The notes under the pieces: model-generated
The model's database searches: none
Seen by the model: the letters and a program-made list of their open reading frames with translations, nothing else
What the model was told of the DNA's origin: nothing
Part shown: piece after piece, positions 6,111 to 7,073 of the stretch
How positions within the stretch are numbered: the stretch's first letter is position 1
Layout: each line of letters starts with the position of its first letter
Origin: Escherichia coli
Lineage (GTDB): Bacteria; Pseudomonadota; Gammaproteobacteria; Enterobacterales; Enterobacteriaceae
Reading direction: 5' to 3' (one strand)
DNA length: 10,419 nt
Assembly: GCF_003334385.1 (NCBI RefSeq)
Contig: NZ_QOWN01000068.1
Made by a program: the position numbers and the translations under genes

Positions 6111-7073
6111 TCACCCCCTGAATCCCGGCGGTATTTCAGTGTCCGGTTCAGAAATGTGATTCACGCAACGCTGCGCAGGCGAACGCCCCAGGCGGATAAC
6201 CAGTTCATCCCATTTTTCCCGGAGTTTTGCCGGACTCATGATGTTTTTTACCCAGAACGAATCCCGCTGGAGACGCCCAAACATTTCACAAATTTGTCTG
6301 TGAGTTCTGCCATCCAGCATCCGCATTGTGCGAACGTCATTGGCCCATGCTGTCCAGTTGGGTTCTTTCGGTCTAGTGATCTCGCCATCATAGCTGGCCG
6401 CCTGCTCGTAAAGACTCACGATTCGTCCCCAGATCCACTGTGCGCACACCAAATCTTCCTGACTTCCCCACTGGCGTTTTTTCGCACTGAACACAACCGC
6501 GTCAGGGTGTCGGGTTAAAAAATCCTGTTCAGCCGTCTGCGGGTCCGGTTGCGAAGCGTCCGGACAAGAAGATCTTTTATCTGACGGATCAGGTTTTAAT
6601 ACTGACGGATCGGGGTCAATCATCGCCCCCCTAATCGGCAGTTTTTTATCAACAGTTGATCCATCAAAATTTGACGGGTCAACCGTTGAGGGGTCAATAT
6701 TTGACGGGTCAACTGTTAACGGGTCATTTTTTGCCGGGCTAATTTTTCTTTTCGGTTTATATGACTCACGCGCCGCCGCCGCAGCTGCTTCGAGTTTTTC
6801 CACATTAAGCCGATAGATATTGCTTACATTACGCCCACCGACCTTACGCTCTTCCTTCGTCAGCCAGCCCTCTTTCGCCAGTTCTGCAATAGCCGATTTC
6901 ACTGTGGATTCACTTCTTGCACCGATCTGACGCCGGATAGTTTCAATGGCAGGCCATGACACGCCCTCGTCATTGCTGTAGTCTGCAAGACGGGCCATAA
7001 CCGCCACCCTGGATAAGATCATGCCGGTGAAGGCGCACCCTTCCCAGACAAGACCATGAAGCTTGCTGCTCAT
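6111..7073 (-). CDS. Replication initiator, lambda O-like (N-terminal wHTH, central iteron-encoded DPS repeats)
   Basis: Probable start is the ATG at 7073 (MSSKLHGL..., GGGGG Shine-Dalgarno) rather than 7088; the central region encodes repeated DPSNIDPSTVDPSNFDGSTVD from the DNA iterons; precedes the DnaC-like gene as in O-P / ydaU-ydaV pairs. Confidence 0.8.
   Translation of the reverse strand: MSSKLHGLVWEGCAFTGMILSRVAVMARLADYSNDEGVSWPAIETIRRQIGARSESTVKSAIAELAKEGWLTKEERKVGGRNVSNIYRLNVEKLEAAAAAARESYKPKRKISPAKNDPLTVDPSNIDPSTVDPSNFDGSTVDKKLPIRGAMIDPDPSVLKPDPSDKRSSCPDASQPDPQTAEQDFLTRHPDAVVFSAKKRQWGSQEDLVCAQWIWGRIVSLYEQAASYDGEITRPKEPNWTAWANDVRTMRMLDGRTHRQICEMFGRLQRDSFWVKNIMSPAKLREKWDELVIRLGRSPAQRCVNHISEPDTEIPPGFRG
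6582..6742. repeat. Iteron array with adjacent A/T-rich segment: putative prophage replication origin inside the initiator gene
   Basis: About 7-8 copies of a dyad-symmetric motif (T)TGACGGGTCA(A), including exact 13-bp copies ttgacgggtcaac at 6671-6683 and 6701-6713 and tgacggatc at 6582-6590 and 6603-6611, followed by A/T-rich sequence near 6727-6760. Mirrors lambda ori inside gene O. Confidence 0.7.

Follow-up and report, generated by a model that had tools for sequence, protein, structure and literature searches.

A candidate replication origin within the initiator gene of a Rac-like prophage of Escherichia coli

Introduction

The origin of bacteriophage lambda consists of iterons and an A/T-rich tract that sit midway along gene O (PMC7466680; PMC6022878). 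Here we describe a lambdoid prophage segment of Escherichia coli, carried by a stretch of 10,419 nucleotides (nt) of contig NZ_QOWN01000068.1 (hereafter, the window), in which the gene for an O-like initiator harbors a tandem array of short dyads. Sequence comparisons suggest that the array and its surroundings probably make up the replication origin of the prophage, embedded in its own initiator gene in the lambda style.

Origins of the lambda type with six iterons are found in Shiga toxin (Stx) phages such as 933W. The Rac prophage of E. coli K-12 has been credited with an active origin, oriJ (PMC3945230), and is treated as cryptic elsewhere (PMC11014345). Rac has the same operon order as the locus analyzed here, namely, ydaS/cro-like, ydaT/cII-like, initiator and DnaC-like loader genes. 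Its initiator, YdaU, shares a C-terminal IPPGFRG tail with the initiator of the window, but only the last 19 residues align; its N-terminal domain (DUF1376 in RefSeq) is unrelated to the one described below and its repeats, CAGATGTTCAAACA, differ. An array in the middle of ydaU (positions 2505-2578 of the Rac stretch) contains copies of (C)AGATGTTCAAACA, one of them inverted, and is a plausible location for oriJ. A further relative is DopC, a domesticated lambda-like O protein that has an HTH_36 N-terminus and a DnaT C-terminal motif (Brezellec et al. 2017, PMC5509034), as does the initiator here. No iteron-like sequences were found in dopC by these authors and its partner, DopE, is P-like, whereas the present gene contains iteron-like repeats and is paired with a DnaC-like protein. 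That study thus already recorded an O-like protein with a C-terminal DnaT motif, and also assigned an HTH_36-type fold to O by HHpred (PMC5509034).

Results

A tandem array of dyads in the middle of the initiator gene

The features at the center of this analysis are the following:

6111-7073, minus strand: initiator gene (320 amino acids), with a winged helix, a linker predicted to be disordered, a lambda-O-like C-terminal domain and a DnaT-like tail
6656-6742: tandem iteron array, five 12-bp dyads and a degenerate sixth
6656-6667, 6671-6682, 6686-6697, 6701-6712 and 6716-6727, plus-strand reading: the five dyad units

The dyads have the form TTGAC-NN-GTCAA and span 12 base pairs (bp), with five units at an exact spacing of 15 bp across 6656-6727. 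On the plus strand, they read TTGATCCATCAA (6656), TTGACGGGTCAA (6671), TTGAGGGGTCAA (6686), TTGACGGGTCAA (6701) and TTAACGGGTCAT (6716), matching the sequence TTGACNNGTCAA with 2, 0, 1, 0 and 2 mismatches, in that order. The sixth unit, at 6731-6742, is degenerate but in phase with the others. Tandem Repeats Finder reported arrays of period 15 and period 30 over 6649-6747, the longer period being the better conserved. When the whole window was subjected to 1000 dinucleotide-preserving shuffles, the largest cluster obtained comprised three matches within 90 bp (in 2 of the shuffles) versus five in the real sequence. Matches with no more than one mismatch all fell within the array and none occurred elsewhere in the 10.4-kb window, in which Tandem Repeats Finder identified no second iteron-like array and no other A/T-rich origin candidate was seen. 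DnaA boxes were not enriched in the window, which contains one exact box at 6796-6804 and one match with a single mismatch at 6646-6654.

The dyads correspond to nt 347-418 of the initiator gene. All of the repeats lie inside this gene, in codons 111-166, between the folded N- and C-terminal domains. On the coding (minus) strand the repeating unit reads xTT-GAC-CCG-TCA-Axx and its translation yields a series of D-P-S-x-x units (NDPLTV DPSNI DPSTV DPSNF DGSTV ... DPDPSVLKPDPSD). These data bear out two points of a preliminary description of this DNA, which had reported tandem dyad-symmetric motifs of 10-12 bp in the middle of an initiator gene and a DPS-rich linker encoded by them. The TTGA...TCAA arms might also suggest a site for FNR or CRP. 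The FNR consensus is TTGAT-N4-ATCAA; the 4 nt between TTGA and TCAA in the dyads do not fit it, and the idea was dropped.

The location of the array is that of the lambda origin. The four annotated iterons of lambda occupy nt 349-433 of the O gene, and the two genes are of similar length. In both cases symmetric sites are encoded in an interdomain linker in the middle of the initiator gene, and this gene belongs to a pR operon, downstream of cro- and cII-like genes and directly ahead of the gene for a helicase loader. The systems diverge in the details. The lambda iterons are 18 bp long and spaced 20, 24 and 23 bp, whereas here 12-bp dyads recur with 15-bp phasing, five or six of them in the array and two apart from it. 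In lambda O, the 30-mer of lowest stability (nt 446-475, 83% A+T) lies immediately downstream of the iterons, while the A/T-rich region is much weaker here and its position ambiguous. The N-terminal domains are unrelated in sequence (HTH_36 here, as opposed to Phage_rep_O), the loader is P in lambda and a DnaC-type AAA+ ATPase here, and lambda O is devoid of the DnaT-like tail. The shared gene coordinates, the homology of the C-terminal domain to O and a full-length match to the O-like family PHROG 391 (see below) uphold the view, put forward in the preliminary description, of an arrangement of the lambda type. A plasmid iteron replicon of the Rep_3/RepA/pi type was also considered, taking as its hallmarks iterons of about 17-22 bp, a phasing of about 22 bp and an intergenic origin. 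This candidate was rejected: the initiator has no Rep_3 match, its sites are inside the gene and phased at 15 bp, and its structural matches are generic winged-helix folds.

The repeats are constrained at the DNA level

The initiator gene was compared to two independent groups of homologues. The first included 11 sequences whose N-terminal domain is 52-72% identical to that of the window (SfII, SfIV, phiNP, KpF5, 733R5, Flotzy, YeP1, EKP1, phiP27, a Stx2a phage and Kp4866-6); the second comprised 20 lineages from IMG/VR. All members of the first set carry an array of the same DNA type, with 15-bp phasing, directly after the N-terminal domain. The encoded peptides differ, with units such as SDPSK, SDTSK, SDASK, FEGSK and SEPSK.

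Codon usage in the linker was strongly biased. In the first set, the Ser residue of the [D/E]-x-S motif was encoded by TCA in 67 of 77 linker cases, compared to 30 of the 219 Ser codons elsewhere in the genes (Fisher test, 8e-32), and the other linker Ser was encoded by TCT in 56 of 88 cases (23/219 elsewhere). The same analysis in the second set gave TCA in 94/104 versus 53/345 (4e-46), even though the middle residue of the motif had 14 different identities. Across the about 30 lineages, the core Ser was TCA in 87-90% of cases versus 14-15% elsewhere in the same genes. As a baseline, identical residues of the N-terminal domain use the same codon in 32-46% of cases when the window is compared to each of the other lineages. 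Alignment of 50 unique 15-nt units identified T3-G4-A5 and T10-C11-A12, the two halves of a TGA/TCA dyad, as the conserved positions, two of which are third-codon positions. The codon preceding Asp/Glu ended in T in 38 of the 50 units, with the encoded residue being S, F, I, V, T, P, G, L, R, H or Y. Since residues change freely while the TGA/TCA nucleotides are kept, the constraint operates on the DNA rather than on the protein; on this comparison, the repeats are conserved as a symmetric DNA site and not as a peptide. The number of units in the array was identical in 76 of 78 close relatives.

Repeat type follows the N-terminal domain

The TGA-N4-TCA arrays remain associated with the N-terminal family across four contexts of C-terminal domain and loader (C-terminal domain O-like, of another type or P27-like; loader present or not). 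Conversely, five other classes of N-terminal domain carry five other types of repeat at the same position of the gene. Phage mEp460, with a different N-terminus, has four copies of GGGTCAAAATGA at a 23-bp spacing; Min27 has three copies of AGGTGGGGCAGGAG; S107 and ZF40 have four to five copies of CCCCTGTGCC; and the YdaU repeats of Rac were given above. The mEp460 protein shares the C-terminal domain from "...ASQPDPQTAEQDFLTR" onward. In a megablast search against phages, the segment 6118-6578 alone matched, with 86% DNA identity to mEp460-type phages, and the match ended just downstream of the repeats. Judging from these sequences, the repeats and the N-terminal domain covary, as would be predicted for iterons and the domain that confers their specificity.

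Phages SfII and SfIV, the Stx2e phage phiP27 (L17) and a number of Klebsiella and Yersinia phages resemble the window in having the same N-terminal family, TGA-N4-TCA arrays and the pair of GATCC-containing units described below. They differ from it in the sequence of the unit, the encoded residues and the copy number, as well as, in some instances, in the C-terminal domain; several are without any phage-encoded loader. No origin feature was annotated in the stretches retrieved from the records of this group.

Domain organization of the initiator

The initiator protein is divided as follows:

6759-7073, minus strand (codons 1-105): N-terminal winged-helix domain, presumed to bind the iterons and to determine specificity
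6543-6758, minus strand (codons 106-177): interdomain linker, carrying all of the repeats
6174-6530, minus strand (codons 182-300): lambda-O-type C-terminal domain, presumed to recruit the loader
6114-6176, minus strand (last 21 codons): DnaT-like tail, AQRCVNHISEPDTEIPPGFRG

The entire protein (residues 1-320) is covered by PHROG 391, "replication initiation O-like" (E 2e-115). The Pfam scan returned HTH_36 alone (amino acids [aa] 25-71, E 3.8e-6), with no match to Phage_rep_O or Rep_3. In the AlphaFold2 model, aa 1-105 are predicted with a confidence score (pLDDT) of about 82-97 to form four helices, a beta-hairpin wing and one more helix (aa 91-105), and Foldseek matched the domain to generic winged-helix folds of the MarR/PadR/ArsR type only. 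Profile comparison with the N-terminus of lambda O yielded no similarity (hhalign probability 0.4%). Given the HHpred assignment made for O (PMC5509034), a very remote kinship at the fold level is possible.

The linker (aa 106-177) was modeled without secondary structure, at pLDDT values of 44-57, and is predicted to be disordered. A constraint at the DNA level would be tolerable in such a region. Among relatives, both the length of the linker and the number of pentapeptide units, 3 to 8, are variable. The C-terminal domain is predicted to be helical (aa 178-294). In BLASTP alignments, aa 182-300 are 39% identical to aa 171-277 of lambda O over 119 columns (E 5e-26), identifying this half of the protein as a true O homologue. 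Of the 21 residues of the tail, 15 are identical to those at the very C-terminal end of E. coli DnaT (PDB 2ru8, 6aep, 9zbt). A GFRG tail also ends the initiators of Rac (YdaU), mEp460, SfII, SfIV, Kp4866-6 and Flotzy, including some phages without a DnaC gene of their own. The tail may be a short motif for recruiting DnaC or DnaB; the way in which DnaT recruits DnaB/DnaC was called unknown in a 2026 paper (PMC13377028).

A GATCC pair and A/T-rich tracts flank the array

Additional elements were recognized on either side of the array:

6581-6593 and 6602-6614: two extra dyad-like units, 21 bp apart, copies of CTGACGGATC(A/G)GG
6572-6601, C-terminal (downstream) side of the array: candidate DNA-unwinding element, 70% A+T
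6739-6768 (within about 6727-6768), N-terminal (upstream) side: A/T-rich stretch, 73% A+T

On the coding strand, the extra units read C(C/T)GATCCGTCAG, each with a GATCC, and are separated by the A/T-rich spacer GTATTAAAACC. The GATCC ... TGATCC columns were invariant in an alignment of 10 lineages, even though the encoded residues shift from DPS to DPQ. The pair was found again, 21-24 bp apart at about nt 400-560 of the gene, in 18 of 20 further (IMG/VR) lineages; in 733R5 and KpF5, it provides the only GATC sites of the gene. Four GATC sites lie within 6571-6661, versus one per roughly 350-700 bp window-wide, a range that reflects 30 two-strand matches with each palindromic site counted once or twice. 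In one close IMG/VR variant, with an initiator gene of 942 nt, exactly 21 bp (DPSVLKP) between the GATCC units were deleted, a loss that is consistent with recombination between the two repeats. A gene for an adenine methyltransferase follows the initiator gene, directly or two genes later, in 733R5, KpF5, phiNP, SfII, YeP1 and pKqq_SB1124_5.

One could imagine that the closely packed TGA-N4-TCA dyads and a GATCC pair bracketing the unwinding element represent a distinct design controlled by Dam and SeqA, with hemimethylation gating re-initiation. We regard this scheme as doubtful, but if true it would explain why an adenine methyltransferase gene lies directly after the initiator gene in many such phages.

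The segment 6572-6601 is the third least stable 30-mer of the initiator gene, and its counterpart is the least stable one in SfIV, 733R5, KpF5, phiNP, Flotzy and YeP1. Its polarity relative to the array is the same as that of the A/T-rich region of lambda. The A/T-rich stretch singled out in the preliminary description, 6739-6768, exists, has the lowest stability of all 30-mers in the gene and encodes the Lys-rich sequence KPKRKI; its A+T content is moderate, however, its polarity opposite to that in lambda, and it was not conserved in the homologues compared. A third segment, 6642-6671 (77% A+T), is also among the three least stable 30-mers; of the three, 6572-6601 alone has a counterpart conserved in relatives. 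By analogy with the polarity in lambda, 6572-6601 is probably a better candidate for the unwinding element than 6739-6768. Within 6565-6583 (plus strand, AGAAGATCTTTTATCTGAC), the sequence GATCTTTTATCTG resembles GATCTnTTnTTTT, the consensus of the oriC 13-mers. The likeness may be due to chance, as it concerns a single copy and includes a GATCT specific to this lineage.

Helicase loader, operon and prophage context

The neighboring features of the replication module are:

5364-6104, minus strand: DnaC-type helicase loader (246 aa), intact
7096-7839, minus strand: upstream part of the same rightward operon, delineated by a promoter-like site and gene families
7839-7812, minus strand: pR-like promoter (promoter-like site)
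7505-7786, minus strand: Cro/YdaS-like gene (gene family match)
7096-7521, minus strand: CII/YdaT-like gene (gene family match)

The loader scores 494 bits against NCBIfam PRK12377 (cut-off 389; residues 1-245 of 248), also matches PHROG 50, and is 78% identical to YdaV of Rac over 246 aa. The intact DnaC-like loader noted in the preliminary description is therefore a full-length DnaC-type ATPase. BLASTP indicated that it is unrelated to lambda P: only the first 17-20 residues (MKNIAA...) align, at an E value of 0.19. Over the first 20 codons (6045-6104, minus strand), the loader reads MKNIAAVGVLERIRRLA and lambda P reads MKNIAAQMVNFDREQMRRIA, with 11 of 20 residues identical, a match that is not significant alone; YdaV starts with MKNIATGDVLERIRRLAP. 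Considering that the initiators have the O-type C-terminal domain in common, this N-terminal peptide could be a shared contact with O.

Immunity operators are apparent at 7813-7891, where they lie between two promoter-like sites that point away from each other (7839-7812, minus strand; 7853-7880, plus strand). They include two exact copies of AATACCCACAGGT 24 bp apart, along with inverted partners (TTGTTTACCT), and are unrelated in sequence to the dyads of the initiator gene.

The window belongs to a Rac-like lambdoid prophage of E. coli. Its segment 5300-7900 is 98.7% identical to a prophage in E. coli JNE132847, and 1206 of 5426 complete E. coli genomes contain it at a coverage of at least 80%. 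In the JNE132847 relative, for which RefSeq annotates the same initiator open reading frame (ORF), the gene order is repressor, Cro-like ("transcriptional regulator"), YdaT-family (CII-like), HTH-domain protein and ATP-binding protein, followed by DUF1627, hokD, RusA and further nin-region genes. Searches with Rfam also revealed a sok antitoxin RNA at 3044-3219 (120 bits), beside a hokD-like ORF, and the small RNA DicF at 10104-10155 (77 bits), both usual cargo of Rac- and Qin-type prophages.

The module was also encountered in a circular E. coli record of 15,977 bp, NZ_CP148542.1, in which a segment with lambdoid immunity, replication, nin and lysis functions, much like lambda-dv, has the present initiator/loader module as its only replication module. 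The initiator ORF of this record contains a -1 and a +1 shift in homopolymers. The record could represent a natural autonomous replicon or an assembly artefact and, since it may be a product of assembly, was not counted as evidence. The possibility that its frameshifts mark Dam sites was rejected, as they are plain changes in homopolymer length. A 15-kb e14-like record had a truncated homologue only, and a 44-kb Klebsiella "plasmid" has the appearance of a circular phage genome.

Discussion

From the sequence evidence presented above, we consider it likely that the segment at about 6565-6770 is a prophage replication origin embedded in its own initiator gene. The initiator would be produced from the pR-like operon and its N-terminal winged-helix domain would bind the TGA-N4-TCA dyads, probably as dimers given the symmetry of the site and the fact that winged-helix folds of this kind usually bind palindromes in that form. 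The five or six sites spaced at 15 bp, together with two others about 40-75 bp further, would form a compact nucleoprotein structure akin to the O-some of lambda, which would destabilize an adjacent A/T-rich tract, most likely the conserved 6572-6601 or, alternatively, 6739-6768. Recruitment of the DnaC-like loader, together with the host DnaB, would then fall to the O-type C-terminal domain and the DnaT-like tail, and DnaB would be loaded on the opened DNA. As in lambda, transcription of the operon through the gene may help activation. We infer these steps of binding, opening, recruitment and firing by analogy with lambda.

Several observations weigh against this interpretation. In the GTCA arm, G was enriched among the 11 sequences of the first set (40/73) but carried only 0.09 bits in the independent set; hence, TGA-N4-TCA is the general core, and the full TTGAC-NN-GTCAA is specific to this lineage. 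The outer positions of the dyad (2 with 13, T-A versus C-G) showed no complementary co-variation among 83 unique units (Fisher p = 1.0). When close variants were compared (30 unique sequences with only 33 variable sites, picked on N-terminal identity and hence uninformative on this point), the origin region had 5.9 variable sites per 100 bp versus 1.1 and 3.5 in the rest of the gene. A few of the variants hit the dyad arms, such as a GAC to GCC change in the third unit in 5 of the 30 sequences, a pattern compatible with resident prophages being under relaxed selection. The A/T-rich tracts, at 70-73% A+T (2.4-2.7 standard deviations [SD]), are weak next to that of lambda (83%, 3.3 SD), and their occurrence on both flanks of the array singles out no one unwinding site. 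The half-sites of a dyad stand at a distance of only about 7 bp and successive units at 15 bp; this geometry is unusual for helix-turn-helix dimers and makes the binding mode a guess. Finally, text searches of the literature gave no description of these repeats; the motif sequences matched unrelated primers only and a search combining SfII/SfIV with "iteron" returned nothing relevant.

Could the repeats be a coding feature only, that is, a flexible linker of pentapeptides generated by slippage, the DNA of which has no function? The predicted disorder of the linker, the variation in copy number among relatives, the variant lacking exactly 21 bp between the two downstream units and the lack of extra conservation of the array in close variants would all be accounted for in this way. 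Against it, the residues of the unit vary freely (at least 10 are seen before Asp/Glu and 14 in the middle position), while TGA...TCA, including two third-codon positions, is kept where other synonymous sites are near saturation. Moreover, the two Ser residues of a unit use different fixed codons, TCT and TCA, and GATCC does not vary even when the amino acids it specifies do. The codon evidence thus renders a purely coding repeat unlikely, and we would give this explanation very little credence.

The repeats might instead be functional DNA sites of a different nature, bound by the initiator in autoregulation, copy-number control or the exclusion of related phages, being targets of another phage or host protein, or acting as recombination linkers for the shuffling of the two domains. 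The junction of exchangeable N- and C-terminal modules does fall right at the end of the repeats, and the flanking A/T-rich tracts are weak; cloned fragments of the lambda origin are known to inhibit phages of the same replication type (PMC3349717; PMC4488673). On the other hand, the sites agree with the lambda origin, found at the same gene coordinates, in position, number and symmetry and in being linked to the N-terminal domain, the window offers no alternative iteron array or A/T-rich origin candidate and no enrichment of DnaA boxes, and the immunity operators have another sequence. On balance, sites of this other sort seem improbable. A related scenario is that of a former origin, now dead, in a resident prophage whose module no longer fires. 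Many Rac-like prophages are cryptic, K-12 Rac being treated as such (PMC11014345), and the close variants show arm substitutions, like that of the third unit, with no excess conservation. However, the initiator and the loader are intact and full length, the unit count is maintained in 76 of the 78 close relatives, and oriJ of Rac, described as active (PMC3945230), shows that a functional origin can persist in resident prophages of this group. We hold the loss of function to be quite improbable, and an origin embedded in the initiator gene to be the likely explanation.

The architecture is that of a classical lambdoid phage, with a layout that is well known and would not surprise a specialist. 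Specific to the present case are the N-terminal HTH_36 family, the short dyads (12 bp, phased at 15 bp), the GATCC pair and a DnaC-type loader shared with Rac. The findings should be useful for annotation, while leaving the understanding of lambdoid replication unchanged. The codon signature constitutes a clean case of a DNA element constraining synonymous sites and could be used for finding embedded origins automatically. The analysis also provides a concrete, testable candidate origin of about 200 bp, whose recognition core would be TGA-N4-TCA. It concerns a common replication module found in the Rac-like prophages of more than 1200 complete E. coli genomes and in phages such as SfII, SfIV and phiP27, the records of which have gene-level labels only.

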